Of a stretch of 64,000 nt of DNA, positions 8,292 to 33,096 are shown one piece after another. Under the pieces are notes generated by a model. The model was not told the DNA's origin and made no database searches. It saw only the letters and a list, made by a program, of their open reading frames with translations. How positions within the stretch are numbered: position 1 is the stretch's first letter; every line of letters starts with the position of its first letter. A program made the position numbers and the translations under genes. This stretch comes from a virus: the IMG/VR virus record IMGVR_UViG_3300025326_000025; one strand, written 5' to 3'.

Positions 8292-8292
8292 T

Positions 8293-11200
8293 CTACTCCT
8301 CCTCCCCCGACATGCTTCGACGCAGGAATGTGAGTCGTTCGAACAGCACGAACGTCTGACCGACGATCTGCTCCGCCGTGACAGCGTCCGTGGCGTTGAT
8401 GAGGTCCGAGAGGATCACGAAGAACAGTCGACCCGCCAGGACGCTGTCCCCCACGCCAACCGCGTCGGAGAGCTGCCGATACAGGATCGCGGACCGGGAC
8501 ACATCGTCCGACACGCTGGCCGAGTCCGACAGAGACCGGAGGATCTGTAAGAACATGATGAGATCGTCCGTCACGGCCAGCGTGTCGGAGAGGGCGCGCG
8601 TGTGCGAGAACGCGGCGAGGGTATGGAGGACGTCCGTTACCACGATGTCATCGGACAGGGGTCTCGTCCCGAGGAAGACACGGTGAAGGTCATCCGATGT
8701 GGCGATGGCATCCGCCAGGAGACGCCCGAAGATGATCTGGAAGGGCCCCGGAGAATCCGTCGCGGCGATGGCATCGGACAGGAATCGCTGGAACAGGAAT
8801 CCCGCCAATATGCCCGGCTCTCCGACGGCGACGGAATCGGAGAGGGCGCGGATGAGATTCGCGATCCGAAGCGGCGAATCGACGACCGGGATGTCATCGG
8901 AGAGCTGCCGGAGATACTGGACGATGGCCGGCGCGAGTTCGTCGGTAGACCCGATTGAGTCGGCCAGGAACCGCCAGAACAGGAGTCCGACGAACACGGT
9001 GTCCGTGACCGAGACGGTGTCCGACATCTGCTGCATGATGTTGAAGAAGTGCGTGAGTTCGTCCGCGACCGGCTGCGTGTCGGCGAGGAAACGCAGGAAG
9101 TCGATGGAGGGCGTCCCGGTCGCGTCCGTCACGGCAATGGAATCGGACGGAAAGGCGAAGAACGACAGGAACCGTAGGATATCGTCCGCCGTGACCGCGA
9201 TGGAATCGGAGAGGATCCGATCTGTGATCCATGCCCGGAGGAGTTCGTCCGTGACGATGATCGAATCGGACGGTGTCCTGAACCAATCCATGATTCTTAG
9301 GATATCGTCCAGAAGGGCGACCGAATCGGAAAGCAGACGACTAAACACATTCCCTCCCGCGCCCGCTGGGTGTACCGCTACGACTGTGGCCGTCCAATCG
9401 TCCGATACGGAGATCGTCCATGATCCGGGATTTTCGGATGCGGCGTTGAGAGTTCTTTGTGCTGCGGCGACGCGGCAGTTCGTCGCGGTGAGACCGGCCG
9501 TGCCGGAATCGGCGCCGAGTGGACTCGAATAGTCCGTCGGGTTCCCCGCCGGGGGAGATGTCTGTTCGCCCTCCCAACCCCCCATCCACAGCCAGAGGTA
9601 GCTTTTCGCGCCGCCCGTTGGCGAAAGCGATCCCGGATTCGGGGCCGCGTCCGTTCCGGTGACGAGCGTGGCGAACTCTGGCGCTTGCGTGGACGGGTTC
9701 TCCGCGCCGCTGATGCGGTAGGCGATGGAGGCGAACTTCGAACTCGTCTGCGTAATTGTGATGGTCGCTCCCTCTGTTCCGTCGGCTTGCCTGTACCAAA
9801 GGGAGATGCGGTCGTTCGATCCATCGGAGTCGTCGTTGAAGAGGTTCGTCCATCCCCCTCCGCTGACGGCATGCGACGTCGTATTGCTGGCGCTTCGATG
9901 AAGGACGAGGAGGAGGTCTCCGGAGACGATTCCACTCGGCAGATTCACCGCGGCATTCGCCGTGGCCGTAGTCCCGTTCGTCGTCGCGGTTGTCTCTACG
10001 ACGGGCGCGCCGCTCAGGACCGCCAAGATGCCAAGATCCTCTACGTCCACGGAGTCCGATAGGTTCCGGAGTGATTCGAGAACGCGTGCGATCGAATCGG
10101 TCACGCTCTGCTCGTCGGACAGCGCCCGAAGTAAGGACAGGGAGGAGACGACAGAATCTGTCGTCGAGACCGAGTCGGACATGTCCCGAAGGGTGTTCCA
10201 GGCGCGCAGGAGGTCGTCCGTGACGACAATCGAGTCGGATTGCGCGCGCTCGGCGATCCATGTCCGGATCATCTCGTCCGTGACCGTCACGGAATCCGAG
10301 GCGTCCCGGAGGAACGCAAGGAGAGCGACCACATCGTCCGTCACGCTCGCCGAGTCCGACAGGGACCGGTCGAATGTGGTACCCCCGGCATTATCCGTGA
10401 AGGCGAGCCAGCCATAGTAATCCTGAGTCCCAGAGTTAAGCCATGTGAGTGTAAACCCATCAGAGTTCAGTCCGGTCAAATCGGCCTCATTGTCTTCTAC
10501 GGGGGTTGGACCGCCGGCCATGAGTTCCAATACCCTGTCCGTGGCATGCAATCTATCTACCACAGTTGGAAGGACCGCGTCTCTCCCAACAATACCAGCA
10601 TATCCTTCTTGTGTGCCATCTGTAGATGTGCCGGCACCAATGCCAAACTCTTGATGGTCCACGATAGAATTTGGGGCGGTGGTTGCAGCGTTAGTCGCAA
10701 ACAGAACGCCTTTGGGCTGGAAAGAAAGACCCGTTAAGGTGTCTGTGGTCCCCGCGGGTTTTTGTCTGGTTCCCGCGTCCCATCGACCTCCCTTCAGACA
10801 AAGGAACATGGCCGTGTAGGAAGTGGTGGGCGCATCGAGAATGCCGAGGGTGAAGCCGTCTGTATCGAAGGTATCGAGATCAAGGAGGGAATCCTGAGCA
10901 CCATTGACAGCGAAACTATGTAATAGGCCATCCGTCCGGAGGACCTTTTGCCAGTCCATCTGGGCTGTCATATTTGCGCCATCGTCAGCGCAAATGCTGG
11001 CGAGCCAAAATTTCGTATTAGAGACGGCGACACCATAGGAGAGCTTTAAATGTGCAGAAAAACTACCGGATGTTGTACTGGGTGTAGCGGCAATGGCGAT
11101 TATCACATCTGGCTGGAACCCGACACCGGTCTTTTGGGTCGATGTTCCAGTAGTGGGGATGGCATGGCTCACGACGTTTGCATCTGTCAGGTCTGCCCCG

Positions 11201-11598
11201 CCGAACGCCAAGTAGTGGAAGATGTCGCCATTGGCATTTGCCGCGCTAGAATACGAGACTACAAATCCATCCGAATTGAAACTGTCCAACGCGACAGTAT
11301 AATCTGTTGCCGTGGTGCTAGATGGAACCCAAAGAAGCTTAGTCGTGTCGAAACCGTCGGCATTGTCCGTCGTACCCACGTTATCGATGTTGATTCCCAT
11401 GGTGCACATGTTCTGCGTCGCCGCACCGCGTCGAGTACCGAGACCAATCGACAGAATTGCATCCCCTTGGAATGACCCTGCGGCTCCCGGCCCGGTGGAC
11501 CAAACCAGAATGGCTATCGGTTGGAAGCCAACGCCACTAATCGTCTGTGGACTGGTGTTGTTCCCCGTCCATGTCCCTTTCTTCACCGAAAGGGCCAT
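8293..11598 (-). CDS. Tail fibre/adhesin protein: GFQP three-repeat domain plus about 22 LSD repeats (1101 aa)
   Basis: Domain and repeats visible in the translation. Confidence 0.75.
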   Translation of the reverse strand: MALSVKKGTWTGNNTSPQTISGVGFQPIAILVWSTGPGAAGSFQGDAILSIGLGTRRGAATQNMCTMGINIDNVGTTDNADGFDTTKLLWVPSSTTATDYTVALDSFNSDGFVVSYSSAANANGDIFHYLAFGGADLTDANVVSHAIPTTGTSTQKTGVGFQPDVIIAIAATPSTTSGSFSAHLKLSYGVAVSNTKFWLASICADDGANMTAQMDWQKVLRTDGLLHSFAVNGAQDSLLDLDTFDTDGFTLGILDAPTTSYTAMFLCLKGGRWDAGTRQKPAGTTDTLTGLSFQPKGVLFATNAATTAPNSIVDHQEFGIGAGTSTDGTQEGYAGIVGRDAVLPTVVDRLHATDRVLELMAGGPTPVEDNEADLTGLNSDGFTLTWLNSGTQDYYGWLAFTDNAGGTTFDRSLSDSASVTDDVVALLAFLRDASDSVTVTDEMIRTWIAERAQSDSIVVTDDLLRAWNTLRDMSDSVSTTDSVVSSLSLLRALSDEQSVTDSIARVLESLRNLSDSVDVEDLGILAVLSGAPVVETTATTNGTTATANAAVNLPSGIVSGDLLLVLHRSASNTTSHAVSGGGWTNLFNDDSDGSNDRISLWYRQADGTEGATITITQTSSKFASIAYRISGAENPSTQAPEFATLVTGTDAAPNPGSLSPTGGAKSYLWLWMGGWEGEQTSPPAGNPTDYSSPLGADSGTAGLTATNCRVAAAQRTLNAASENPGSWTISVSDDWTATVVAVHPAGAGGNVFSRLLSDSVALLDDILRIMDWFRTPSDSIIVTDELLRAWITDRILSDSIAVTADDILRFLSFFAFPSDSIAVTDATGTPSIDFLRFLADTQPVADELTHFFNIMQQMSDTVSVTDTVFVGLLFWRFLADSIGSTDELAPAIVQYLRQLSDDIPVVDSPLRIANLIRALSDSVAVGEPGILAGFLFQRFLSDAIAATDSPGPFQIIFGRLLADAIATSDDLHRVFLGTRPLSDDIVVTDVLHTLAAFSHTRALSDTLAVTDDLIMFLQILRSLSDSASVSDDVSRSAILYRQLSDAVGVGDSVLAGRLFFVILSDLINATDAVTAEQIVGQTFVLFERLTFLRRSMSGEEE
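8385..9340 (-). repeat. About 16 tandem 20-22-aa R-x-L-S-D-(S/T/A/D)-x-x-V-T-D repeats
   Basis: e.g. RLLSDSVALLDDILRIMDWF / RTPSDSIIVTDELLRAWITD / RSLSDSASVSDDVSRSAILY; coordinates approximate. Confidence 0.85.
10039..10368 (-). repeat. Six tandem 20-aa LSD repeats
   Basis: RSLSDSASVTDDVVALLAFL / RDASDSVTVTDEMIRTWIAE / RAQSDSIVVTDDLLRAWNTL and following; coordinates approximate. Confidence 0.85.
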
Positions 11599-12081
11599 CT
11601 AAATTACCTTCACTTCTCGGCAGTAGGTGTTCGAGATTTCGTGCCATTCTTTGTTCGGAATCAACTCACCTGCGAATATGGCAACAGCATCGCTTGGAGC
11701 ATCGGTGGATAGACCGCCTCCCCATGACCCATCCGGGTTGAACCAGTAGTAATCGTAGCCGAATATCTTGTCTGAGAAGTGATACGATCCCGCGCCGTCC
11801 GCGCTGCCCGGGCCACCGACGTAGGTCCGCGTGTAGATGACCTTGATGAACAGGAGGCCGCTGGTAGGGAGTTGCTGCACGGCGGCCTTGATTTGCGCCA
11901 AGGTCTTCCCCTCCATGGCTACATGTCTCTCTACCATGGGTGTGCCGTTGTAGACTAGAAGGGCCTGTTTGACTTCTGTAATCCGGGGACGGTTGTTCTC
12001 TCCGGGTATCCCCAAATCGTGTCCCGTGCCGTCCTCGAAAAGGATACGGCTACCGTCCTCCTGGAGCAGTTGGAACGGCAT
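11599..12081 (-). CDS. Putative virion protein (160 aa)
   Basis: N-terminal LLQEDGSRILFEDG motif common in tail accessory proteins; located in the tail block. Confidence 0.6.
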   Translation of the reverse strand: MPFQLLQEDGSRILFEDGTGHDLGIPGENNRPRITEVKQALLVYNGTPMVERHVAMEGKTLAQIKAAVQQLPTSGLLFIKVIYTRTYVGGPGSADGAGSYHFSDKIFGYDYYWFNPDGSWGGGLSTDAPSDAVAIFAGELIPNKEWHEISNTYCREVKVI

Positions 12082-12141
12082 CGGGCACCCTCAATCGCTC
12101 CCGTAGACTTCCGATATTTTCTTGTCGGGCATTTATCCACC

Positions 12142-12477
12142 TCACGGCGTCACTTCGACCCCGAACAGGTTGAAGGCCAGCGCGGAGGACGTGTCCGTGC
12201 GGACGTCCACGAGATCCCCCGCGTTCAGGGTCATCCCAATGACCGCGATGTACGTGTCGTTCACGGGCACGTTCACGTCGAAGTAGATGTACTGCGCGTT
12301 GGTCGCTGCGGCGCCGTTGATTCGCACGCGCACCCGGAACTTCGCGGCGCCCGCGGTGATGTTGCAGATGGAGATGCTCGAGGAGATGACCTGCGTGCTC
12401 GCCGGGACCGTGTAGAGGTTGTTGTCACTCGTGTTCGCCGGGAGAACTTGCCCAAGGACCTTGTAGGTTTCTGCCAT
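12142..12477 (-). CDS. Small beta-sandwich virion protein (111 aa)
   Basis: LYTVPA..Q.IISSI.ICN...L..GD pattern; GAGGTGA RBS. Confidence 0.7.
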   Translation of the reverse strand: MAETYKVLGQVLPANTSDNNLYTVPASTQVISSSISICNITAGAAKFRVRVRINGAAATNAQYIYFDVNVPVNDTYIAVIGMTLNAGDLVDVRTDTSSALAFNLFGVEVTP

Positions 12478-12486
12478 CTTGTCACC

Positions 12487-12918
12487 TCAGAACATCGACA
12501 CCGTCCATCGAAGGAAGAGGATGTCCGCCGGCTCCAAGACGACTCCGCTGAACGTCACCCGCGCGAGGATGATGTTCGTGGGCGTCCACATCAGGACCGA
12601 CTCCCGGATCGTTGCATTGAGGCCGCTGTGGCTCGAGGAGAAGACGCTCTGCGTCGTCGAGGGTTCGGAGGCGACGTTCGTGAGCGTCTGCACGGGCGCG
12701 ACACAGTCCGCGTCTCCCGCCGCGGGCGCCTGCGGAGACGACCCGATGACCGTTCGTTTGAATCCCTGGTTCGTGTCGAGGCTTACCGTCCCGGACAGGG
12801 ACATGAGCCAGTTGAGGCCCTGATTCACGATGAGGTTATGCGTGGACCGTTCCTCCATGCGGCCGTCGGATCCGACCTTCACGACGCCGACATTGACCTC
12901 TTGAGGGAACGGGAACAT
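12487..12918 (-). CDS. Tail-collar/fibre-base-like protein, paralog 1
   Basis: HNLIVNQG...IGS....P..GD...SSSHSG...R.TFS.V.L...D.L...WTVS. Confidence 0.6.
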   Translation of the reverse strand: MFPFPQEVNVGVVKVGSDGRMEERSTHNLIVNQGLNWLMSLSGTVSLDTNQGFKRTVIGSSPQAPAAGDADCVAPVQTLTNVASEPSTTQSVFSSSHSGLNATIRESVLMWTPTNIILARVTFSGVVLEPADILFLRWTVSMF

Positions 12919-12919
12919 C

Positions 12920-13897
12920 TCACACCTCCACGAACGAGATCGTCGCGCGGACGCTCAGCGTGTCCGTAGGCTGGAGCGTCACGGGCGAGAACGTCGCGCG
13001 GTTCAGTCCTGGCTGTCCGGCGACGGAGGACCCTGCGATACCGAGAGCCATCTCGCTGACGGTCGCCGACAGGCCCGTGTGGCTCGAGGAGGCCACGTAC
13101 CGTCCTGGTGTCCCGGAAGGTTGGAAGGCGTTGGTGACGAAATGCTTCTCGAAGTAGCTCACGGTGACCCGTCCGGTCGTCACGGCGCCGTAGCCGTCCT
13201 CGTTGTTCCCCGAACTCGTGATTGCGACGGTCATCGACGCACGTAGGTCTGCGAGCTGACCGAAGTCAATGTTTCCCGTCAAGATTGCGAGGCTCGTGAT
13301 CTCGTAGGGCGTCGTATCGGAGACGCTGAACACATCGACCGTCTGCGGTCCCGTTGCCACACCGGGAATATAGAGACGGTGGCTCCACGACCCCGCGACG
13401 AACCCAACCCCGGAAACCTTCTGAGCGACGACATTGTAATTCGCGGAGACGGTCTTGAGGACATGGAACGTCGATCCGGGCGGATCGCTAGTGTGGTATA
13501 GGTCCGTCAGGACCTCCGCGGGCGGCTCGAACCCGGAGATGGTCGAGTAGAGATATGTCGCCGTGTTCGCGTCGTTCAGGCGGGCCGCGTGCGTCGCGCC
13601 GGACCCGGCCGTCCGCAGGTTCGCCTGGATGTCCGAGCTGAAGGTCAGCGTGGTGGTCTTGTTGACCACGATCGGGGACTTGACGCCCCCGTCTCCCGCG
13701 GCGGGCGCGGAACTGTCAGATCCCAGCCACGTGATGCCGAAGGGCAGTCCGCTCAGCGTGAGGACGCTCCGGAGCTTGTCGTTGATGATCTGCTTCCCGA
13801 CGGTCATCGCGAGGTTCCGGATGTCCCGGACCTCTTGCATGTGGCCGCTACCGTCGTAGCGTTCGATGTGGACATCTCCGCGCAGGGAAACTGGCAT
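12920..13897 (-). CDS. Tail-collar/fibre-base-like protein, paralog 2 (with ~180-aa insertion)
   Basis: Same N- and C-terminal motifs (RNLAMTVG..., SSSHTG..., FSPVTLQPTDTL) split by an insert. Confidence 0.6.
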   Translation of the reverse strand: MPVSLRGDVHIERYDGSGHMQEVRDIRNLAMTVGKQIINDKLRSVLTLSGLPFGITWLGSDSSAPAAGDGGVKSPIVVNKTTTLTFSSDIQANLRTAGSGATHAARLNDANTATYLYSTISGFEPPAEVLTDLYHTSDPPGSTFHVLKTVSANYNVVAQKVSGVGFVAGSWSHRLYIPGVATGPQTVDVFSVSDTTPYEITSLAILTGNIDFGQLADLRASMTVAITSSGNNEDGYGAVTTGRVTVSYFEKHFVTNAFQPSGTPGRYVASSSHTGLSATVSEMALGIAGSSVAGQPGLNRATFSPVTLQPTDTLSVRATISFVEV

Positions 13898-13911
13898 CTC
13901 CGCTCAACTCT

Positions 13912-13921
13912 TGGTTATTGG
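13912..13921 (-). promoter_or_regulatory. CCANNAACCA motif
   Basis: CCAATAACCA, 15 nt before ATG 13897. Confidence 0.65.
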
Positions 13922-13923
13922 CC

Positions 13924-15645
13924 TCATGGCGACCTCTCCGCGACGGTCATCCGGACGATGTAGACGCCCCTTCGGAGGCGCTCGATCGTGTACCCCTCCA
14001 TCCTCCCGACGAACCGCTCCTGGAGGTTGAAGTACAGGTAGAACAGGATCTCCAGGTCGCGATCGGCGACCGCAAAGGCCTCGAGGGCCGCGGCCATCGC
14101 ATCCCGATCCGACTCGTCGCCGAGGAGCAGACCCGCAACGTCCCACCGCTTCGCCTGGCTGCCGGACCCCTGGATGACGTCTTTGCCAGCCGGCACCCGG
14201 ACGACGTTCGATTTGGACGCCCGTCCGGGTGTCACCTTGCCGGCGTAGAGGAACACGGACTCGGAGCGTCCGTCGAGGTGCAGTTTCAGGATGCTCCCCG
14301 GCAAGACCGAGTTCTTGAGATACTGGACGATGAACACGTCCATGACCGGGATGTCGTCCGACAGTTCCCGGAACAGATTGCGGAACTGCTCGATGATGGC
14401 GCGTATGGAGACGGACTCGTCGGAGAGGCGCTCGTACTCGTTCGATAGATCCAGTTCGTCGATTGTCTCCACGGTCACGGGGACATCGACCTCGGCGACC
14501 ACCTGTCGGAAGAGGTCGTCCACCACGAGGATGTCGTCGGTCGGATACCGGGACGCCTCCATGATCGTAATGGGGTCCACGCCGATGACGAACGTCTCAT
14601 CCGCGAACCGTTCGGCCTTCGGCGCCCCGAACGCACGCGTGATGGGCAGGAGGAAGTGACGGAACGGGTACGCGGGCTTCGCCGCCATGCCGTTGAGGAA
14701 CGTGCGCTTCCAGATGACCGCCTGAGCGGACACCTCGATTGCAGCGCCCTCGATGAATGCGACCACTTGATCTGTGATCTGGATGTTCTTGAGGAAGTCC
14801 CTCTCGGGATTCCAGATGCGGACGAGTTGGTCCGTGACGGAGATCGAATCGGAGGGCCTCCGGTTCAGGCCCGTCTCGATGCGCACGAACGGCAGGACGA
14901 AGAAGCGCGTCGGATAGGCGGGCTTCGCGGCCAAGCCTCCGAAGAACGTCCGGCGCCAGACGATCGTGTTCGACAGGACGGAGACGGGCGGGGGAGGGGG
15001 TACATCCGAGAAGGCGGCCGTGACGCCGATCTCGAGCGTCGTGCGGAAGGAGCGGCGGAGGTTGTCCGTGACGGAGAGGTTCTGCGACAGGAAGCGGTTG
15101 AACGTGCTCCCGACGACCGAGAAGATGAGGTCGTCGTCCACGACGAAGGAGTCGGAGAATAGTCGAGAGTACGTCGTCCCGATGATTCGTGCGTCGACGG
15201 CGTCCGAAAAGGAGATGCCCACTTCCGGCAGGTCCTTCGATGCCGAGAAGATGCGACGTGGCGTGTCCGTGACCACGATCATCTGGGACAGGCGGACGGT
15301 GGTCGTACCGGCTTGGAGGGCCGCAGAGAGGGCATCCGACACATCGATGCTGTCGGATTTCCGGACAACGTATACGAATCGTACGGATCGCGTGACCGAG
15401 TCCGTCCATGACGGTCGGACGTTGATCCCCTTCGTCACGACGAATGTCCGGCGGATACCCGGGTCGTTGACGTCGATGACCTGAGACAGCCGACGGGTCA
15501 GACGTTTCGTCACCCGGACGGGAAAGTCTGAGACGTCGATCGTTTGGGACAGGAAGCGGTTCTTGATGGGCCCGGCGACGAAGGTGTGCCCCTCAATCGC
15601 GCGTATGCTGACCGTCTCGTTCGCAAAGCGCGTGAACAGGGCCAT
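13924..15645 (-). CDS. LSD-repeat protein with a C-terminal GpU/Dit-like domain (573 aa)
   Basis: About 15 LSD-type repeats, two W-R/K-RTF..G.AAKPAYP units; C-terminus similar to 15656-16078. Confidence 0.65.
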   Translation of the reverse strand: MALFTRFANETVSIRAIEGHTFVAGPIKNRFLSQTIDVSDFPVRVTKRLTRRLSQVIDVNDPGIRRTFVVTKGINVRPSWTDSVTRSVRFVYVVRKSDSIDVSDALSAALQAGTTTVRLSQMIVVTDTPRRIFSASKDLPEVGISFSDAVDARIIGTTYSRLFSDSFVVDDDLIFSVVGSTFNRFLSQNLSVTDNLRRSFRTTLEIGVTAAFSDVPPPPPVSVLSNTIVWRRTFFGGLAAKPAYPTRFFVLPFVRIETGLNRRPSDSISVTDQLVRIWNPERDFLKNIQITDQVVAFIEGAAIEVSAQAVIWKRTFLNGMAAKPAYPFRHFLLPITRAFGAPKAERFADETFVIGVDPITIMEASRYPTDDILVVDDLFRQVVAEVDVPVTVETIDELDLSNEYERLSDESVSIRAIIEQFRNLFRELSDDIPVMDVFIVQYLKNSVLPGSILKLHLDGRSESVFLYAGKVTPGRASKSNVVRVPAGKDVIQGSGSQAKRWDVAGLLLGDESDRDAMAAALEAFAVADRDLEILFYLYFNLQERFVGRMEGYTIERLRRGVYIVRMTVAERSP

Positions 15646-15655
15646 CCCGCATCCC

Positions 15656-16078
15656 TCACGGGACGCGGACGAGATCCACGTTCACGTCGAACATTCCCTT
15701 GCCGCGCCTCGCGTCGACCGAGTAATTCAGGATGAAGGCCGAGAACGACTCCTGAACGGCCCCCTCGATCGTCAGACTCACGCTCACGGCGCGCCCCTGC
15801 CAAGAGGCGCTGGTGCTGTGCCAGATGAGGTTGTCCAGCGCGCGCTCCTTCTGCACCTTTCCGGTCGCCCAGCTGCCGAGGGACACGGCAACGAGGCGCT
15901 CCCGCTTCGCGTTCGATCCGGCGGGCTGGAGGACGTCGGACGACGTACCCGGAATCGGGATGATGGAGAGCTTCGCGGACCCCGCCGGGGATAACTCTGT
16001 CGGCAGGAGGACGAGGCCGTTGTTCGGCTCCGAGAACCCGCCGCTACCCGAAATCTGCAGTCGAATGTCTGTCGTCAT
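15656..16078 (-). CDS. GpU/distal-tail-like protein (140 aa)
   Basis: IIPIPG..SDVLQPAGSNAKR aligns with VVRVPAG.DVIQGSGSQAKR in the preceding gene. Confidence 0.55.
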   Translation of the reverse strand: MTTDIRLQISGSGGFSEPNNGLVLLPTELSPAGSAKLSIIPIPGTSSDVLQPAGSNAKRERLVAVSLGSWATGKVQKERALDNLIWHSTSASWQGRAVSVSLTIEGAVQESFSAFILNYSVDARRGKGMFDVNVDLVRVP

Positions 16079-16085
16079 GTGTGGT

Positions 16086-17438
16086 TCACCCTCTCAGGAT
16101 CCTCCCGCCTTTCTTTCCGGAATGCCCGTAGATGAAGCGCGTCGGACCCGAGGTGACGGACGCGACGACCGTGTCGGAAACGGAGATGGAGTCGGAGAGG
16201 CGTTGAAGTGTTGCACCGAGCGGTCCGACCGAGAAGTACCACGCGAACGACTGCGATGGATCGGCATCGTCCATGATGCACGTGAATCCGTCGGAATCGA
16301 GGGACTTGAGATCCATGAGGCCCTCGGTCGTGTCGCTCGTGGACATGTTCGCATAGACTTCATCGTGCTCAAGAATGGTTCCTACTACCGACGTGTCCGC
16401 GTTGTCGTCGTCGTGGCATCCCTGGGCGCCACGATCCGTTGTTCCAGCGAATGCGCCCACGCTCAACTCAAGCCCGGCCGAGACCGTGTCCTCGGTACTC
16501 GCCGCCCTGCAGGCCGACACGATAAGGCCCGCTTTGGGAGCGAACCCGAACCCCGTCTCAACGATGTCCGTCGTCGTGTCCGTCTGCGTCAGGAGGGAAT
16601 CCACCCGGAAGTTCACGCCCCGGAGAGCCAGGTAGAAAAGGGTGACCGTGCCAGCGATATTCTCCGTCCAGTTGAGTCGGAAACCATTCGTGAGCCACGC
16701 TGTCAGAGTGGCCCGCCGCGCGATCGGGTTCGGATCGCTCGGGTCCGTGTCCATCCGGACGAAGATTTCCCCGGAACGGCAGTAGGACGCTGAATCGGTC
16801 AACGCCTGACCGTTCTCCGAGGAACAGGCCCAAACGGCATTCGACGGCGTAGAACCCGCCGCAGCACCGAAACTCGCTCGCGCGTGGACCGTCACCGTCA
16901 GGTCTGCACTTGCGGAATCAAGGATGAGCAGCGCATCGGGCGTGAATCCGAGGCTGGTGAAATCCTCATCTCCCGTCGCTCCGATGGATGAAACAACGGA
17001 TCCCTGTTCTACCTGAAGGTCCGATCCTCCGAGGGCTAGATACGTGACGCGATAGGTATCCACGAACGCGTTATCCGGAACGACCGAGAAGCCGTCCGAG
17101 TTGAAGGAGACGAAATCCAGCAATCCATCGACGACCCCACTCACGTCGATGGCCGATAAGCAGGCGGTCGTGTCCCGATAGCGGTCCGTGTTCGATGTCC
17201 CGGCGCCATCGTCGAGCTGCAATGACCATGTGTACCTCGACGTGGACGACACCGCCCATCCGATCGCCGGCTTCGCGTCCGCACCGCCGACGGAGTCGGA
17301 CGTACCGGTGCGCCCGGTCATGAAGAAGATGACGACTTTGGGCTGGAAGGTGCCCGCGTCGGGGTCCGTCGTGACGACGTCGATCTGGGAAGTGATGGTC
17401 GTCGTGCTGAACGCTCCAACGGCGCGGAAGAACGTCAT
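16086..17438 (-). CDS. Adhesin-like protein: one GFQP three-repeat domain plus terminal LSD unit (450 aa)
   Basis: TFQPKVVIF / GFTPDALLI / GFAPKAGLI repeats; ends RLSDSISVSD...FIYGHSGKKGGRILRG. Confidence 0.7.
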   Translation of the reverse strand: MTFFRAVGAFSTTTITSQIDVVTTDPDAGTFQPKVVIFFMTGRTGTSDSVGGADAKPAIGWAVSSTSRYTWSLQLDDGAGTSNTDRYRDTTACLSAIDVSGVVDGLLDFVSFNSDGFSVVPDNAFVDTYRVTYLALGGSDLQVEQGSVVSSIGATGDEDFTSLGFTPDALLILDSASADLTVTVHARASFGAAAGSTPSNAVWACSSENGQALTDSASYCRSGEIFVRMDTDPSDPNPIARRATLTAWLTNGFRLNWTENIAGTVTLFYLALRGVNFRVDSLLTQTDTTTDIVETGFGFAPKAGLIVSACRAASTEDTVSAGLELSVGAFAGTTDRGAQGCHDDDNADTSVVGTILEHDEVYANMSTSDTTEGLMDLKSLDSDGFTCIMDDADPSQSFAWYFSVGPLGATLQRLSDSISVSDTVVASVTSGPTRFIYGHSGKKGGRILRG

Positions 17439-20125
17439 GCCGGTATCTCCCGAAGGACACGCCCACCGTCAAGGCCCGCCGAGATGTAGATGAACTCAGA
17501 CGGTTCCGTCTCGGAGACGACGTGTGCGGATGCGATTCCCTCCGAAATCGTAATTCCGTCGGACAGACCCCGTACGAACGCGCCGGTCCCAAAGGCGAGG
17601 TATGCGATGATGTCGGCGGTGGCGTCGTTCGTCGTCCACCTGACGGTGAAGCCGTCCGTATCGTAGGATTTCATGTCCCCCGCGGCGAGCACGGACGGGG
17701 TGGATCCGTGGACCGCTGTAATGACGGCCTTCGTCATCGTGTCGTATTGGTCGACCTGCGTCGGCAAGACGGCGTCTCCACCGACCCCGGCGGACGCTCC
17801 CTCTTGGCTCCCGTCCTTCGAGGACGCGGCCCCGATCGCGAAGTTCTCATGCGCCTGAATCGAGTTCGACGATGTCTGATGGGTGTTCGCGAACAGGACC
17901 GCGCTCGGACTGAACCCGATGCCCGTGAAGGCGTCGTCGAGAGGTGCGGCCTCCGTCGCTTTCGCTTGGGTTCCTGCTTTGTATCTCCCGCCCTTCAGCA
18001 GGAGCATGACCCCAATCGTGCTCGCCGTCGCAGGCGCGTCGTTGATGGTCAGCGTCAATCCGTCCGAATCGAAGGAGGCGAGGCTCCAGTTCGCATCTTG
18101 CGCGCCGCCCGTCGTGAACGAGTACATACAGGCGTCCGTACGGAGGATCTTGTTCCAATCCATCGCTCCCGTCGTGGTGACGGCATCGTCGGCGCAGACG
18201 GCCACGCACCATTGGCTCGAGGCAGACGAGGCAGCTCCGAACGACATCGTCATGTGGTCGTTCTGGCCGCTTGCGACATGTGCCGTGTTGGCGTAGAGAA
18301 ACAGCGCGCAATCCGGTCGGAAGCCAGCGCCCGTGATGATCTGATCTGTGCCCGACGTGTTCATCGTCGGAAGGAGGACGATTGCGTCCTCCGCATCGGT
18401 CCCTCCGATGGCGAGCCAGAACAAACGTTCCGTCGCCAGCGCGACGTTGTAGGAGAGGGTGAACCCGTCCGCGTCCATGCTGTCCAGTTGAACGTTATTC
18501 GTGCCGTTCCACCATACCGATTCGTTGCGCGTCGAGTGCATCGTGTTCGTAGTCGACACGTTATCGTCGTTGCGCCACGCAATGCACCCCTGCTGGACGC
18601 TGGCCCCGCGTTTCGTCGCGAACCCGATGGATTCCCGCGTGCTCGCGACCCAGACGTTCCCGTTCGCCAGACCGCGGGATCTCCAGAATATGACCGCCTT
18701 CGGCTGGAAGTCCAGACCCGTGATGTCGTGGAAACCGATGTTGTTGTACTGGTTATCCCGCAGCACGACGGAGCCGTGCTTGACGCGGAGGCTCGGAGGC
18801 GCCGCCTGCCCGCCGTCCCCGATTGCGACATAGGTGACGTACCGCTGGGCGGTGCCGGGTGGGACGAACGGCCCATTCGGACTCGGGACAATCTGCTCCA
18901 CCGTGAATCCGTCGTCGTTCGTAGACGTCCACACGACTTCCTCCTCGATTCCGCCGGCCGTTGGTGGACCTCCCGGAGGCCATTCGGGGTCGATGGAGGC
19001 CCAGCAGCTCGTCGTCTTCGTCGTCGTGGCCGCCGCCATCGGGACCGTGCCGCCATCCGTCTCGTAGTCGAGATTTGCGATCCCCTGGGTGCCGTCCTCA
19101 TCGAAACCTCCGAGGTTAATCCCATAATCGTAGTCCGCGGGTTCCTCGTCGAGTTCGCCAAGGGACGAGTTCGTCGAGAGGAAGGCGACACCGCGCGGCC
19201 TGAAGCCCATGGAGACCGACAGGAGGCTCGGACTGTCCGTCTCGGATGCGACCCCGGGAAGATTGAGTGACCCCACGCGGCCCGAGAACGTGCCCCCGAG
19301 GATTAGCCCCAGGAAGCGCACGGAGGAGGTCGTGACCTTCGTGTGGTTGAGCGTGAACCCATCCGAGTCCCATGATATGAAGTCGGCCTTGTTGTCGCTG
19401 ATGAGATCGGCCTGCGCGCTCCCGTGCTTCGCCGACAGTAGGCATGACGATAGGGTGCTGAAATTCGCGCGGAGCTGCTGGACGTTCGTATTGTCGTTCG
19501 CGCAACAGGCCCACGCCCAGCGTCTCGATGTCGACTCGGCGGACCCCATTCCGAACGACGCGCCCGTCGCGGATCCCGTAGCGGTTTGATTCGTGTTCAG
19601 GAAAATGCCAATCTTCCCTTGGAAGCCCACTCCCGTGTAGGAACGGTTCCCCGTCGCGGTAGGACCGGTGAATCCACCGACGAACGCACCCGATACATCG
19701 CTCCCGCCGATGAAGGTGTAGTGGATGATGATGGCACTCGCCCCGCCGGGATTCTCCGTCCAGTTGACCGTGAACTTGCCGGCGTTACCTCCCGTCCCGA
19801 AGGAATCGAAGTCCGCAACGCTCTCCTGTGTAGGCGTGGAGTCTGAGAACACCTCGATGACGCGATCCGTGAAGTATCCCTTCCCGACGTTCGCCGGATC
19901 GACGCCGTTCTGGACGACATTCGAGATGCAGCCGCGCTGCGAGGGCGACGCCGCGACGCCAACTCCGAGGACCTTGTGGCCGCTCGACTCATCGAATCCG
20001 GACGTTGTCTGATTCGTCCAGAACAGGATGACGGCCTTACCGACGACTCCGCTGCCCGTGTCGATGGTCTGCGTTCCTGTGCCGGCGGGTCGCGTAAAGG
20101 TTCCCTTGACCCACGTCACAGCCAT
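17435..20125 (-). CDS. Adhesin-like protein: two GFQP three-repeat domains plus terminal LSD unit (896 aa)
   Basis: Six repeats; ends RGLSDGITISE...FIYISAGLDGGRVLR. Confidence 0.7.
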   Translation of the reverse strand: MAVTWVKGTFTRPAGTGTQTIDTGSGVVGKAVILFWTNQTTSGFDESSGHKVLGVGVAASPSQRGCISNVVQNGVDPANVGKGYFTDRVIEVFSDSTPTQESVADFDSFGTGGNAGKFTVNWTENPGGASAIIIHYTFIGGSDVSGAFVGGFTGPTATGNRSYTGVGFQGKIGIFLNTNQTATGSATGASFGMGSAESTSRRWAWACCANDNTNVQQLRANFSTLSSCLLSAKHGSAQADLISDNKADFISWDSDGFTLNHTKVTTSSVRFLGLILGGTFSGRVGSLNLPGVASETDSPSLLSVSMGFRPRGVAFLSTNSSLGELDEEPADYDYGINLGGFDEDGTQGIANLDYETDGGTVPMAAATTTKTTSCWASIDPEWPPGGPPTAGGIEEEVVWTSTNDDGFTVEQIVPSPNGPFVPPGTAQRYVTYVAIGDGGQAAPPSLRVKHGSVVLRDNQYNNIGFHDITGLDFQPKAVIFWRSRGLANGNVWVASTRESIGFATKRGASVQQGCIAWRNDDNVSTTNTMHSTRNESVWWNGTNNVQLDSMDADGFTLSYNVALATERLFWLAIGGTDAEDAIVLLPTMNTSGTDQIITGAGFRPDCALFLYANTAHVASGQNDHMTMSFGAASSASSQWCVAVCADDAVTTTGAMDWNKILRTDACMYSFTTGGAQDANWSLASFDSDGLTLTINDAPATASTIGVMLLLKGGRYKAGTQAKATEAAPLDDAFTGIGFSPSAVLFANTHQTSSNSIQAHENFAIGAASSKDGSQEGASAGVGGDAVLPTQVDQYDTMTKAVITAVHGSTPSVLAAGDMKSYDTDGFTVRWTTNDATADIIAYLAFGTGAFVRGLSDGITISEGIASAHVVSETEPSEFIYISAGLDGGRVLREIPA

Positions 20126-20160: not shown

Positions 20161-20274
20161 CTAGCGCGCGTGCTTTTCCTTCCGGTGACGGACCCAATCG
20201 CGCCACGGCACCTCGTCGCCGCAGCCGCAGAGGATCGTCCCCGGTTGGACGTTTCCCTTCTTGCTCTTTGTCAT
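20161..20274 (-). CDS. 37-aa C2H2-like microprotein (not in the ORF track)
   Basis: MTKSKKGNVQPGTILCGCGDEVPWRDWVRHRKEKHAR; flanked by two CCATCAACCA motifs. Confidence 0.55.
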   Translation of the reverse strand: MTKSKKGNVQPGTILCGCGDEVPWRDWVRHRKEKHAR

Positions 20275-20306: not shown

Positions 20307-20316
20307 TGGTTGATGG
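20307..20316 (-). promoter_or_regulatory. CCANNAACCA motif sharing its CCA with tRNA-Asn
   Basis: CCATCAACCA, 33 nt before ATG 20274. Confidence 0.6.
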
Positions 20317-20388
20317 CGCAGCCGCGCGGAATCGAACCGCGACCTTCGGCTTAACAGGCCGATGCACGCACCCTCGTGCTACGGCTGC
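20314..20388 (-). tRNA. tRNA-Asn(GUU)
   Basis: GCAGCCG/CGGCTGC acceptor, TCGGC-CTGTTAA-GCCGA anticodon arm, GGTTCGATTCC T-arm; CCA encoded. Confidence 0.92.
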
Positions 20389-20391
20389 GTG

Positions 20392-20464
20392 TGGGACGGG
20401 CCCGGTTCGAACGGGCATCTTCGGTTCTGGAGACCGACCGGCTACCGATTGCCGACACCGTCCC
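20392..20464 (-). tRNA. tRNA-Trp(CCA), intronless
   Basis: GGGACGG/CCGTCCC acceptor, TCGGT-CTCCAGA-ACCGA, TTCGAAC T-loop. Confidence 0.88.
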
Positions 20465-20465
20465 A

Positions 20466-20536
20466 GGCCACAGGCGCGAGTCGAACGCGCGTCTCGGGGA
20501 CCACAACCCCGCGTCCTTCCGTTAGACGACCGTGGC
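20466..20536 (-). tRNA. tRNA-His(GUG), no encoded G-1
   Basis: GCCACGG/CTGTGGC acceptor, C73, CGGGG-TTGTGGT-CCCCG; base -1 is T. Confidence 0.9.
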
Positions 20537-20537
20537 A

Positions 20538-20608
20538 TAGTGCCGCCCTGAATCGAACAAGGATTTCCGGGTCCAGGGCCCGGCGTCTTTCCGTTAGACG
20601 ACGGCACT
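20538..20608 (-). tRNA. tRNA-Gln(CUG), atypical C33
   Basis: A1-U72 (archaeal Gln hallmark), CCGGG-CCCTGGA-CCCGG. Confidence 0.85.
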
Positions 20609-20609
20609 A

Positions 20610-20680
20610 TGGGCCATGACGGAGTCGAACCGCCTCGTCCGAGTTCCAGGCTCGGGATGCTGCCGTTACATCAAAGGCCC
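20610..20680 (-). tRNA. tRNA-Pro(UGG)-like, atypical C33 and A37
   Basis: GGGCCTT/ATGGCCC (U6.U67 mismatch), CCGAG-CCTGGAA-CTCGG, GGTTCGACTCC. Confidence 0.75.
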
Positions 20681-20688
20681 CTTCGCGA

Positions 20689-20762
20689 AGCCACCGGAGG
20701 GAATCGAACCCCCGTCCTCCCGCTTACAGGGCGGGTACTCGGCCAACGTGAGCTTCGGTGGC
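20689..20762 (-). tRNA. tRNA-Thr(UGU), atypical C33 and A8
   Basis: GCCACCG/CGGTGGC with U73, CCCGC-CCTGTAA-GCGGG, GGTTCGATTCC. Confidence 0.83.
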
Positions 20763-20765
20763 ATG

Positions 20766-20838
20766 TGGAGACGCCCGGAATCGGACCGGGATCATCGGAT
20801 CTTCAGTCCGGCGCTCTACCAGATTGAGCTACGTCTCC
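20766..20838 (-). tRNA. tRNA-Phe(GAA), T-loop TCCGATT
   Basis: GGAGACG/CGTCTCC, TAGCTCAATCTGGTAGAGC D-arm, loop CTGAAGA; C55 and C27.A43 deviations. Confidence 0.85.
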
Positions 20839-20843
20839 GCGGA

Positions 20844-20915
20844 TGGAGCCGGAGGGAGTCGAACCCTCACCACCTACTTGCAAGGCAGGTATGCTTCCGT
20901 TAGCACCACGGTCCC
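20844..20915 (-). tRNA. tRNA-Ala(UGC)
   Basis: G3.U70 identity pair, loop CTTGCAA, GGTTCGACTCC; A4.C69 mismatch. Confidence 0.88.
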
Positions 20916-20924
20916 ACGGCGGCC

Positions 20925-21184: not shown

Positions 21185-22015
21185 CTATTTGAAGTTCATG
21201 TCGTGGTTCGTGGCTGCGCGCTGTTTCGCATACAGGACGAACGGGTCCGGATCGCGGATCATTCGGTAGCCGAGATTGGCGGCCGCGCTGTTCACGCGGG
21301 CGTCGCGTTCCGCCTGCGCCGTCCGCCACGGGCCGTGACCCCCCGCGCCATCCAGCTCGAGGATGACCGCGAGATCGCGGACGGTCCCGTCACGCACACC
21401 GGGAACGCCTTCAACGACCTGCTGGAACCGGAAGCCGAGGCGCGTCGCCGGGTCCGAGATGACATGGGCGAGCCATACCCTCTCGTTGGACGTCGGGCGG
21501 CGGGCGAGCGAGGCTGCGAGCTTGCGATGGAACGCGGGGTCTTTGTGCCGTTCCTTCATCGAACGGCTCACGCCGTCGTGGCGGGACCGGATAAAGACGG
21601 GATTGGCGTTGTGGACCTTCATCCGGTCGCTGGCGGCCTTGTCCCACGATGGGTCAAATCGGAGCCGCGTCATCGTTCTGCGTGATCTTTGTTTGGCTGC
21701 CGCCGCGAACGCAGGGTTCTTGTGTAATCGTTTCATTCGACGACTCGATGCCTCGCGTCTTTTCTTCACGAAGTCGGGATCCGCGTTCAGTCTGTTTATC
21801 GTTCGCCGGGCCGATTCGGACTGTATCATGCGTCTTCGCGGATCTTCGCTCCAAGCCTCCGACATGGATCGACCGATTCCCGCCTTCTTGACCCATTTGT
21901 ACACGGCGCTCAATGACACGCCGACGGAATCGGACACCGATTCTAGACTCTTTCCGGACGCGTAGAGTTCGAGCGCTCTGTTTCTTATTCCGTCTGAGTA
22001 GGCACGGCGTGTCAT
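21185..22015 (-). CDS. Free-standing homing-endonuclease-like protein (HTH + basic NUMOD-like repeats + DUF559/Vsr-like nuclease)
   Basis: N-terminal HTH (ALELYASG.SLESVS..VGVS..AVYKWV); repeated S..MK..H.DP.F units; C-terminal PTSNE...FRFQ...D.AVILELDG..H...RD. Confidence 0.7.
   Translation of the reverse strand: MTRRAYSDGIRNRALELYASGKSLESVSDSVGVSLSAVYKWVKKAGIGRSMSEAWSEDPRRRMIQSESARRTINRLNADPDFVKKRREASSRRMKRLHKNPAFAAAAKQRSRRTMTRLRFDPSWDKAASDRMKVHNANPVFIRSRHDGVSRSMKERHKDPAFHRKLAASLARRPTSNERVWLAHVISDPATRLGFRFQQVVEGVPGVRDGTVRDLAVILELDGAGGHGPWRTAQAERDARVNSAAANLGYRMIRDPDPFVLYAKQRAATNHDMNFK
21204..21213 (-). promoter_or_regulatory. CCANNAACCA motif
   Basis: CCACGAACCA upstream of 21161 and the tRNA array. 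Confidence 0.6.
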
Positions 22016-22576: not shown

Positions 22577-24763
22577 TCACAGGCCGAACCGCGCCAGTTC
22601 CTTGCTGATGTCGTCCCTCGAGGCGTCGTAGAAGTTGAAGTTCAATGTACCGCCGTGCATCCCGCCGGAGATTGTCGTCCCGGCGGCAACGGCTCCGGCG
22701 CCCCCCATCCCCAAGCGGAACCCGAGGATCCCACGGTTCTCCTCGGCCGTGAGGACGCGTTCGCCGCGATGGAGCATGAACGCCCCCGTCTCGGTCACGA
22801 AATCCGTGCCCATCTGCAACGACCGATTCTCGCTCGATGTGAGCAAAGCGCGGAAAGCATCCGGGAAGGCCGACAAATTATGCAAACCCGATAGAAGTGC
22901 ATCGAAGCTCCTTCTCGAGTCTAGGTTGGCGAGGACATCCATGAGTTCACGGTTCTCCTCGGCCGTGAGGACGCGTTCGCCGAGGTGCAGGCGATACATC
23001 CCGGTCTCCTCGACGAAGGGCGTGCCCTCTTGGAAGCTCTTTCCGGCGGTGGCAGCGATGTATGTCCCGACACCAGCGAGAGCGGCAGCCATGATGGCGA
23101 TGGCTGGGATTGTGCCCACGAATAGGGTCCGGCCCGATATCTCCGCGAGGGCCACGGCGAATTGCGCGGCTGCGAGGCCCCACGCGGCCGCTGTCAGGAC
23201 CGAATAGAGGGCCGCCTGTTCCTTGCTCGTCGCGCTCATCGCGGCCATCATCAAGGCTACGCCGCTGACGGCCGCGCCGACGCCGACCATCGCGGCACGC
23301 ATGGCGACCGCGCGCCGGTTCAGGGTGTTGAACCAGTTGTCGACGTCGCCCATCGTAGGTACGAGCTGCGTCGCCATCATCAGTCGGAGTTTTCCGAACG
23401 CCGCGACCATATCCAGGATCGTCTTAATCGGCAGGATCCTGTTGAACAGGGCGAACAGGATGATCATGTTCTGGACCGGCTGTGGGAGAGAGAGGAACGC
23501 CTTCACGAGTCCGAGGAATACCTGCGAAAAGGCGTTCCACACGGGGAGCATGTTCACGACGATGCGCAGGAGACCTTGGAGGAGTTCCAAGAGTTGCGGG
23601 AGGTTCGCCGCGAAGTCCCGGATGACGGTCACGAGGATCTCCCGGAACACCGGCGCCGACGCCGTGATGATGTCCTTGAGTTCCGTGAGTACATCCGAAA
23701 GGGCCTCAACGACTTCCGGTGTTCGGATGCCCCCCACGAAGGTCTGAACGACCTGCTGCCATTGCGACTGTAGCGTGTCCGCCGTCTCTCCCGCAACCTC
23801 CGCGAGTGCTCCCTGAGAGTTCGTGATTGCGTCGATGGACCCGGGTAGGCGGTCGGCGTTGAGGAGAAGGAACGCGAGGGCACGTGCGCCCCTACGCTCC
23901 ATGAAGCCGAAGAACTCCGCGAGCTGATCGACGTCGATCGAGACATCAAGACGGTCAAACGCCTCTACGAGCGCCAACAGGTTCAGGCGTCCGTCCTCGA
24001 TGATGTTCACGCCGAGGCCGAGGGAGTCGGCCCATGCCTGTGCCTGGTCCGCGTTCTGGATGAGGCTCACGATCATCTGGTCGATGCCACGCGCCGAGAT
24101 CCCGGCCTGCTGCCCGGCGTTCACGAGCTGCACCATGAGGGCCAAGAACTCCTCCATGGTTCCGCCCGCGAGCTGAATCGTCCCCGCGGCGAATCCGAAG
24201 GCCCGGCCGAAGTCCTCGACGTCCAAGAGCGAGATGTTCGCCGCCACCTGGAGCTTGTCGAACACCTCGACGGCCGTGAGACCCTGTGCGGCGAACGCGG
24301 TCGTCGCGACGACGTATGCCCGGGCGGCCGTCTCCCACGAGATCCCGTTCGCCAGGACAGCTTGCGTGGCGACGTCGATGATGTCGATGATCTCGCGGCC
24401 TGTGAGGCCGGCCTTGGCGAGGATGAGTGCACCCTGCGCAATCTCGTCTCCGGCGACGCCCCACGACGCAGCCGCGACGTTGATGGCGTCGTTCAGCTCC
24501 CACATCTGAGTTTCCGTCAAGCCCCCGATGACGGCCGTCTGGCGCAGGGCGAACTCGTAGTTGCGGAGGGCCCCGATGGCGATTCCGACGACGGCCGCCT
24601 GCCCGGCGAAGGCGATGCCCCCCGCGATCGCGACCCGCCGGGCGGTGTCTCCGATGCCTCCGGTGATCGTCGCCATGGACGCACGCCATTGGGCCTGGAA
24701 CCGCGCGAGTTCGGCCTCCGCTTGGGAAGCGTCCGCCGTGATGAAGATATCCGCCTCGGCCAT
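22577..24763 (-). CDS. Tape measure protein (TP901-type core, 728 aa)
   Basis: A-S-W-G-V..E.A.G...LAKAG, LQVAAN.S..D...G, AGQQAG...RG motifs; Ala-rich helical; TM-like central part. Confidence 0.9.
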   Translation of the reverse strand: MAEADIFITADASQAEAELARFQAQWRASMATITGGIGDTARRVAIAGGIAFAGQAAVVGIAIGALRNYEFALRQTAVIGGLTETQMWELNDAINVAAASWGVAGDEIAQGALILAKAGLTGREIIDIIDVATQAVLANGISWETAARAYVVATTAFAAQGLTAVEVFDKLQVAANISLLDVEDFGRAFGFAAGTIQLAGGTMEEFLALMVQLVNAGQQAGISARGIDQMIVSLIQNADQAQAWADSLGLGVNIIEDGRLNLLALVEAFDRLDVSIDVDQLAEFFGFMERRGARALAFLLLNADRLPGSIDAITNSQGALAEVAGETADTLQSQWQQVVQTFVGGIRTPEVVEALSDVLTELKDIITASAPVFREILVTVIRDFAANLPQLLELLQGLLRIVVNMLPVWNAFSQVFLGLVKAFLSLPQPVQNMIILFALFNRILPIKTILDMVAAFGKLRLMMATQLVPTMGDVDNWFNTLNRRAVAMRAAMVGVGAAVSGVALMMAAMSATSKEQAALYSVLTAAAWGLAAAQFAVALAEISGRTLFVGTIPAIAIMAAALAGVGTYIAATAGKSFQEGTPFVEETGMYRLHLGERVLTAEENRELMDVLANLDSRRSFDALLSGLHNLSAFPDAFRALLTSSENRSLQMGTDFVTETGAFMLHRGERVLTAEENRGILGFRLGMGGAGAVAAGTTISGGMHGGTLNFNFYDASRDDISKELARFGL
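22732..22982. repeat. 35-bp exact direct repeat inside the tape measure C-terminus
   Basis: CACGGTTCTCCTCGGCCGTGAGGACGCGTTCGCCG at 22732-22766 and 22948-22982 (encodes GERVLTAEENR twice). Confidence 0.9.
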
Positions 24764-33090: not shown

Positions 33091-33096
33091 GGATGT

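Follow-up and report, generated by a model that had tools for sequence, protein, structure and literature searches.

Three adjacent tRNA genes of a tailed virus, encoding tRNA-Gln(CUG), tRNA-Pro(UGG) and tRNA-Thr(UGU), carry C at position 33, where U is the near-universal U-turn nucleotide on the 5' side of the anticodon. The same substitution occurs in the orthologous tRNAs of a second virus, and we consider it very probable that these tRNAs are functional and that C33 is maintained in them by selection. The explanation that we favour overall, with a probability of roughly 0.45, is that they are selected, functional tRNAs in which C33 changes recognition by host enzymes directed at the anticodon loop. 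The virus is represented by IMG/VR record IMGVR_UViG_3300025326_000025, and the window (the whole stretch of DNA analysed here, 64,000 nucleotides) comprises most of a tailed-virus genome of about 90 kb, with nearly all genes on the minus strand.

ARAGORN and the Rfam tRNA model (RF00005) delimited eight tRNA genes that form a compact minus-strand array at 20314-20916, transcribed in the order Ala, Phe, Thr, Pro, Gln, His, Trp, Asn (from 20916 to 20314; Table 1). A cloverleaf was folded by ARAGORN for all eight tRNAs, whose RF00005 scores range from 37.5 to 67.3 bits against a gathering threshold of 29, and the covariance scores of the Gln, Pro and Thr tRNAs (46-53 bits) fall inside the range of their U33 neighbours. 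Position 33 is U in five of the eight and C in these three. The anticodon loops given in the initial annotation, CCCTGGA for Gln, CCTGGAA for Pro (with A37) and CCTGTAA for Thr (with A8), were recovered by ARAGORN exactly as described, C33 included, and the TCCGATT T-loop reported there for tRNA-Phe was also found, as UCCGAUU with C55.

Table 1. Coordinates of the tRNA array and of other features of the window.
Feature	Coordinates	Strand	Remarks
tRNA-Asn(GUU)	20314-20388	-	U33; ARAGORN, Rfam
tRNA-Trp(CCA)	20391-20464	-	U33; ARAGORN, Rfam
tRNA-His(GUG)	20466-20536	-	U33; ARAGORN, Rfam
tRNA-Gln(CUG)	20538-20608	-	loop CCCUGGA; C33 at 20577; G37; Rfam 53.1 bits
tRNA-Gln(CUG), ARAGORN limits	20537-20609	-	
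tRNA-Pro(UGG)	20610-20680	-	loop CCUGGAA; C33 at 20649; A37 at 20645; 45.8 bits
tRNA-Thr(UGU)	20689-20762	-	loop CCUGUAA; C33 at 20729; A8 at 20755; U73; 50.4 bits
tRNA-Phe(GAA)	20765-20838	-	U33; T-loop UCCGAUU, i.e. C55; ARAGORN, Rfam
tRNA-Ala(UGC)	20841-20916	-	U33; G3-U70 kept; ARAGORN, Rfam
Tyrosine integrase	1519-2355		
Large tail proteins	2611-20125		
896-aa tail protein	17435-20125	-	flanks the array downstream; virus B has an unrelated 827-aa protein in its place
37-aa Cys-containing ORF	20161-20274	-	CGCGDEVPW motif; between the array and the tail gene
Tape measure protein	22577-24763	-	Pfam PhageMin_Tail 4e-16 and PHROG tape-measure families; flanks the array upstream
Ro60/TROVE (Rsr-like) RNA-binding protein	33415-34995	-	Pfam TROVE 5e-29; phrog_850 4e-52
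Major head protein	36043-37068		
Large terminase	45538-47295		
Archaeal-type PCNA sliding clamp	53791-54522	-	NCBIfam NF002222 2e-47; Atlas structure, TM 0.94 to archaeal PCNA
RlaP-family nucleotidyltransferase ("RNA repair pathway" Pol-beta family)	54747-55418	-	Pfam PF10127 1.7e-14; conserved in virus B

Outside the anticodon loop, the three C33 tRNAs retain the T-loop U54 U55 C56 R57 A58, the G53-C61 pair and U8, save for A8 in tRNA-Thr. Their acceptor identity elements are A1-U72/A73 in Gln, G1-C72/A73 in Pro and G1-C72/U73 in Thr, and tRNA-Ala has G3-U70. The earlier description of these elements (A1-U72; U73) therefore stands in part: A1-U72 is present in tRNA-Gln, but the discriminator of this tRNA is A73, and U73 belongs to tRNA-Thr. 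No alternative stem register yields U33 for the Gln, Pro or Thr tRNA. Shifted-register loops, in which U34 or U35 would be the turn nucleotide and the anticodons would be those of Ser or Tyr, were rejected because the acceptor stems are of the Gln, Pro and Thr types, and also because the loops differ by a single base from host-type loops.

Three independent assemblies (ENA ERZ27254762, JGI 3300025312 and JGI 3300025322) agree at 100% identity over the tRNA region, and the Gln, Pro and Thr genes are also covered, with not one base differing, by Logan contigs of two further origins, an independent groundwater study and a soil run. The matching assemblies come from soil, sediment and groundwater. 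Since the DNA is identical across independent assemblies and runs and U was not seen, C33 is not an assembly error, a concern that the initial annotation had raised. The virus strains are 99.97% identical and the population is nearly clonal; thus, the strains confirm the sequence but do not inform on its conservation.

Conservation was assessed in a related virus, here called virus B, a 95-kb contig (JGI 3300050222) that was reached via a PCNA homologue (P0029, 51% identical). Virus B is syntenic with the window virus, and the identity of their proteins is 85% for MCP, 75% for TerL, 73% for Ro60, 71% for the portal protein, 66% for the tape measure protein, 60% for RlaP and 51% for PCNA. At the homologous site (L184 14697-15453), between the tape measure gene and the gene of an unrelated tail protein, virus B carries an array of ten tRNAs in the order Ala, Gly, Asn, Thr, Pro, Gln, Cys, Tyr, His, Trp. 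Five of the ten have C33, namely Thr, Pro and Gln, as in the window, together with Gly(UCC) and Tyr(GUA), and A37 in tRNA-Pro and A8 in tRNA-Thr are likewise present. The seven tRNAs common to both arrays are 71-96% identical, their bodies differing by 4-29%, and their anticodon loops are identical in every case, so that the three with C33 and the four with U33 are the same in both viruses. The Thr orthologue, identical at 70 of 73 positions, keeps both C33 and A8.

The stem differences between the two arrays are compensatory or pair-keeping. From the window virus to virus B, gapped alignments show U7-A66 and U11-A24 of tRNA-Pro each replaced by C-G, and C27-G43 and C49-G65 of tRNA-Gln replaced by U-A and G-C, respectively; tRNA-His has compensatory pairs at 27-43 and 28-42 of its anticodon stem. 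Compensatory changes in the stems, combined with invariant loops, indicate RNAs selected for tRNA structure. The suggestion that C33 reflects selection rather than decay is thus supported, since the virus B orthologues keep C33 in Gln, Pro and Thr, A37, A8 and intact stems through compensatory change; the relative carries C33 in these tRNAs, rather than the U33 that would have spoken for pseudogenisation.

Searches of other collections gave no further relatives. None was found among deposited phage and virus genomes by BLAST of the array or tblastn of the large terminase, nor in IMG/VR by scans seeded with the tail protein and the tape measure protein. The exact 24-base Gln pattern had no match in IMG/VR, and two metagenome pattern scans likewise returned no match, apart from one unrelated bacterial-type array (L265). 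No tRNA genes are present on the contigs of two distant homologues of the tail protein (L001 and L002), and on the contig of a 56% identical tail protein (P0002) the gene map alone appears to leave no space for an array between the 656-aa and tail genes.

The host was approached through PCNA and the tRNAs themselves. All named cellular homologues of the viral PCNA, at about 40% identity, belong to Methanomassiliicoccales or other Thermoplasmatota. The A1-U72/A73 of viral tRNA-Gln and the G1-C72/A73 of viral tRNA-Pro match those of two Thermoplasmatota genomes, G001 (40 tRNAs) and G250 (36 tRNAs); the bacterial-type viral and cellular tRNAs in our samples have C1-G72 in Pro and U1-A72 in Gln, unlike the window tRNAs. 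In tRNA-Trp, G1-C72/A73 is an archaeal identity pattern, and the viral tRNA-Trp fits it. Moreover, viral tRNA-Thr(UGU) shares 82% identity with its G250 counterpart, which has U33. An archaeal-type PCNA combined with archaeal tRNA identity elements suggests that the virus is probably archaeal and not a bacteriophage, its most likely hosts being Thermoplasmatota (Methanomassiliicoccales-like) archaea. The initial annotation had referred to phage tRNAs that escape host anticodon nucleases; a framing of the array as that of a phage facing bacterial nucleases needs to change accordingly. A haloarchaeal host was considered and rejected, given the non-acidic proteins of the virus (pI values).

In these references of the presumed host phylum, position 33 is U almost throughout. 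All 40 tRNAs of G001 have U33, with the loops CUCUGGA in Gln, CUUGUAA in Thr, CUUCCAA in Gly, CUGUAG in Tyr and UUUGGGA in Pro, and the Thr(UGU), Pro(UGG), Gly(UCC) and Tyr tRNAs are U33 in both G001 and G250. In a comparison with these phylum references, position 33 is the only one at which the viral Thr loop departs from the loops of both genomes. Position 33 is also the sole difference between the viral Gln loop and that of G001, and between the Gly and Tyr loops of virus B and those of the G001 type. The viral Pro loop departs from the host-phylum references at positions 32, 33 and 37.

A chromosomal-looking tRNA-Gln(CUG) with the loop CCCUGGA, and hence C33, was found in five of the 83 Thermoplasmatota genomes matching the search pattern (G269, G111, G136, G042 and G250; loci L227-L231). 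Among the 36 tRNAs of G250, no other has C33. The existence of this cellular tRNA indicates that C33 is compatible with cellular translation in Thermoplasmatota and, as its loop is identical to the viral one, the C33 of viral tRNA-Gln could have been inherited from a host-type gene. No cellular C33 counterpart of the Thr, Pro, Gly or Tyr tRNAs was found in the genomes examined. A BLAST search with viral tRNA-Gln against 301 Thermoplasmatota genomes (E <= 0.001) gave no match, the query being too short and too diverged.

To place these cases in a wider frame, IMG/VR was scanned for tRNAs that have the anticodon stems of the window tRNAs, with position 33 left free (C or U). C33 was present in 6/34 matches for Thr(UGU), 1/6 for Pro(UGG) and 2/10 for Gln(CUG). 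For Thr(UGU), the viral 6/34 compares with 1/120 in cellular same-stem matches (Fisher p = 5e-4), and the single cellular C33 case comes from a 2-kb contig that is crowded with odd tRNAs. When all tRNAs in the fetched loci were counted (IMG/VR, L003-L052; cellular, L053-L172), C33 amounted to 26/330 in viral (about 8%) versus 2/303 in cellular tRNAs, these frequency samples being small and biased to GC-rich stems. Both cellular cases, a tRNA-Pro(GGG) and a tRNA-Glu(UUC), lie in one phage-like array of 17 tRNAs on an 8-kb contig of an Actinotalea MAG (L108), which is probably a prophage or a mobile tRNA array.

Unselected viral tRNAs have C33 in 11 of 217 cases (5%) and no purine at this position; two G33 calls occur in the wider tRNA set. 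Against the 5% viral background, three C33 tRNAs among eight have a probability of 0.006, and they would be far rarer against the cellular rate. None of the sampled viral C33 tRNAs is a close homologue of the window tRNAs, which indicates that the change arose many times. In the same loci, A37 was found in 12 of 20 viral tRNAs-Pro versus one of seven cellular ones. A37 precludes m1G37, and loss of the m1G37 site may, on these counts, be a general trait of viral tRNA-Pro. C33 and A37 in tRNA-Pro recur in many viral tRNA arrays, and the three cases are not unique to the window virus; we found no description of C33 in virus-encoded tRNAs in the open-access literature.

We propose that the array may provide functional elongator tRNAs to a temperate tailed virus, being transcribed within its late tail operon. 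The C33 tRNAs would decode codons that are abundant in the virus: CAG directly, the others (ACG/ACA and CCG/CCA) through U34. Viral codon use, in which CAG accounts for 77% of Gln codons, the pair ACG and ACA for 72% of Thr codons and the pair CCG and CCA for 68% of Pro codons, fits such a translational role. In the Gln, Pro and Thr tRNAs, U33 would have given way to the other pyrimidine, and C would be held by purifying selection. Together with C32, and with A37 in Pro, C33 would alter how host enzymes that grip the loop see these tRNAs, whereas decoding would still work. Candidate enzymes of this kind are nucleases, from defence systems or toxins, that cleave tRNAs, and enzymes that place in the loop the modifications on which nucleases rely. 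During an attack on host tRNAs, or their depletion, the virus would thereby retain a private, protected tRNA set. That C33 serves to evade host enzymes directed at the loop is a tentative proposal, to which we give somewhat less than an even chance, and the selective agent that we infer is a host nuclease or another loop-directed factor.

Published work shows that position 33 matters to some loop-directed enzymes. The U33C change abolishes Cm32 formation by the archaeal Sulfolobus TrmJ (SaTrmJ) (PMC4105751), and tRNAs with C33, tRNA-Thr(UGU) among them, are not given t6A37 by E. coli TsaBCDE or yeast KEOPS (PMC8887486); because C33 is thus known to cost tRNAs both marks, the idea is directly testable with transcripts. 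A toxin tRNase that cuts between C32 and U33 is known, as are bacterial tRNases that cut at 32/33 or 33/34 (PMC11724271), and gamma-toxin is indifferent to U33C (PMC2275089). No simple loop motif divides the C33 from the U33 tRNAs of the arrays. As Ala, with CUUGCAA, stays U33 and Thr, with CUUGUAA in its host-type form, became C33, a single loop-sequence-specific nuclease does not explain the pattern. We know of no anticodon nuclease characterised in Thermoplasmatota-type archaea.

Both viruses encode Ro60/TROVE and RlaP, and a weak metallophosphoesterase match adjoins Ro60. These genes suggest an investment in RNA surveillance or repair, which fits an RNA conflict as a circumstantial indication. 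A broader reading, which we regard as rather doubtful, is that C33, often with C32 and with A37 in Pro, is a general, unpublished signature of the tRNAs of bacterial and archaeal viruses, kept as a widespread class of U33-reading host factors, for example defence tRNases or the enzymes that supply the loop modifications needed by such nucleases, fails on C33. If it were true, the 3/8 and 5/10 C33 tRNAs of the two arrays would point to an undescribed tRNA-targeting immunity in Thermoplasmatota.

The main rival explanation is that C33 is a tolerated, nearly neutral variant without special function: decoding would still work with C33, viral tRNAs would be less constrained than cellular ones, and C33 would accumulate or have been inherited from a C33 donor. 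We judge this explanation unlikely, though to be taken seriously. Cellular C33 tRNAs do exist, in the form of the Thermoplasmatota tRNA-Gln(CUG), the tRNA-Cys(GCA) of Sulfolobales (PMC7668247) and the initiator tRNA-Met of multicellular eukaryotes (PMC8887486). Position 33 is mostly a pyrimidine, as expected if only U-turn geometry matters, and A8 in tRNA-Thr and C55 in tRNA-Phe hint at a generally relaxed constraint. However, a neutral site would be expected to flip in some orthologues, and none of the seven has switched at position 33, although protein identity between the two viruses is only 51-85% and the tRNA bodies diverge by as much as 29%; A8, moreover, is conserved too. The C33 tRNAs are also concentrated in the two arrays, well above the 5% viral background. 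The window genome is GC-rich, but GC pressure is not the driver, as four of the five cellular tRNA-Gln C33 loci have about 35% GC. Overall, the complete stability of position 33 in seven orthologous pairs weakens the neutral explanation.

Further alternatives would take the tRNAs out of ordinary decoding, or the C out of the mature tRNA. There is a slim chance that the C33 tRNAs work mainly off the ribosome, either as decoys or sponges that titrate a host defence protein with affinity for tRNAs or by partnering Ro60 in the manner of Y RNAs. The virus encodes Ro60/TROVE, a tRNA gene of virus B lies directly 3' of Ro60, and loops devoid of U33, of m1G37 (in Pro) and probably of Cm32 and t6A37 may be poor at decoding (PMC4105751, PMC8887486). 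Yet the amino-acid identity elements in the acceptor stems are those of the host domain, the anticodons are perfectly conserved and match abundant viral codons, and compensatory evolution has preserved the whole cloverleaf beyond the loop. Deamination of C33 to U33 after transcription, which would render the mature tRNAs canonical, has a prospect that is if anything slimmer. C-to-U editing of tRNAs exists at C8 in the archaeon Methanopyrus, by CDAT8, and at C32 in trypanosomes, and every change at position 33 in the array is of C for U. Nevertheless, we know of no editing at tRNA position 33, scans of viral ORFs with Pfam, PHROGs and NCBIfam revealed no deaminase domain, the conserved A8 and A37 could not be repaired by C-to-U conversion, and the cellular tRNA-Gln C33 of five genomes would need the same explanation. 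Recoding, in which A37 in Pro and C33 would promote frameshifting or altered wobble for programmed frameshifts or expanded decoding, is very improbable. m1G37 in tRNA-Pro suppresses +1 frameshifting, and A37 is kept in virus B and is common in viral tRNAs-Pro; Gln and Thr tRNAs, by contrast, are not classic shift-prone tRNAs, and the spread of A37 in tRNA-Pro over many unrelated viruses argues for a general, not a gene-specific, role. Finally, decaying pseudogenes or an assembly artefact can practically be discounted. Several departures from universal nucleotides do meet in one array (C33 three times, A8, A37 and C55), but the independent assemblies and runs are identical, the covariance scores are normal and virus B conserves the tRNAs with compensatory changes.

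Functional tRNAs whose C33 alters their recognition by host enzymes, the reading that we prefer, would have a counterpart in the nuclease-insensitive phage tRNAs hypothesised by van den Berg et al. 2023 in eLife (PMC10264068), for which experimental cases are a T5 tRNA acting against the PARIS nuclease AriB (PMC11464382) and phage tRNAs acting against retron effectors (PMC11555353). As in those systems, the tRNAs lie in a virus-encoded array, differ from host tRNAs at single loop positions and keep their cloverleaf, and the proposed role, continued translation while host tRNAs are cleaved, is shared. The published cases, however, are bacteriophages confronted with named bacterial nucleases, whereas here the host is probably archaeal and the nuclease a putative one. 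Furthermore, the eLife paper makes no mention of position 33, and the change described here affects the U-turn nucleotide itself.

The cellular C33 tRNAs resemble the viral ones in having an otherwise normal 7-base loop, to the point that the Thermoplasmatota Gln loop CCCUGGA is the viral loop. They differ in being single lineage-fixed genes, whereas three to five elongator tRNAs per viral array have C33. Haloarchaeal Caudoviricetes (PMC8651126) are, like the window virus, tailed archaeal viruses with tRNA genes of their own; unlike them, the window virus is not that of a halophile, as judged from protein pI. What is new here is the archaeal-virus setting, the conservation of C33 in orthologues across two virus species and the host-phylum controls. 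Few nucleotides in biology are as invariant as U33, and a viral lineage with stable C33, set against probable hosts with U33, constitutes a natural experiment on the need for U33 and on which factors attack or mark the anticodon loop. Should C33 prove protective, it would give a first indication that this little-studied archaeal phylum has antiviral defences directed at tRNAs, and viruses that counter them, and would offer a simple marker (Y33 = C) for counter-defence tRNAs in viral genomes.

Several features of the surrounding genome were recorded alongside the array. The 37-aa ORF is near-identical in virus B, where it is also located 3' of the array. Between the tape measure gene and the array, the window encodes a 276-aa basic protein with a transposase-type HTH (HTH_Tnp_1; 21185-22015); virus B lacks it, having an unrelated 89-aa ORF in this place, and the gene looks like a lineage-specific insertion. 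The tape measure gene shows a 216-bp length polymorphism at an internal direct repeat (22732-22982), the protein having 728 aa here and 656 aa in JGI 3300025312. The 913-aa tail gene (5307-8048) lies in a low-GC stretch (0.53), and in strains L177 and L178 it was called as two ORFs of 632 and 167 aa with DNA that is about 99.97-100% identical, so the split calls may reflect gene calling or a single change. An IS110-like transposase is encoded to the left of the window in the virus genome (L176 6110-7135). Rfam detected no tRNA-like attP near the integrase.

Two of the U33 tRNAs of the array have peculiarities of their own. The tRNA-His has C73 and lacks an encoded G-1 (base -1 is U), only one base separating it from tRNA-Gln, while the tRNA-His of Thermoplasmatota genome G001 encodes G-1; maturation of the viral tRNA-His would need post-transcriptional addition of G-1 or an unusual tolerance of HisRS. 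In tRNA-Phe, C55 replaces the universal U55/pseudouridine. Virus B has its tRNA-Phe(GAA) elsewhere in the genome, and there the T-loop has G56, so that the elbow contact is damaged in both Phe tRNAs. This full-length tRNA-Phe of virus B lies directly 3' of Ro60 (L184 3279-3351, 55 bits). Rfam detected no Y RNA near Ro60. Downstream of Ro60, both viruses have a box of the TATAGTTGCC type followed by a conserved block with GTAGTGTAG (window 33050-33430, minus strand; L184 3170-3540). GTAGTGTAG resembles the 5' part of an archaeal tRNA, and the conserved block, or the tRNA-Phe beside Ro60, may be a Y-RNA-like partner of this protein.
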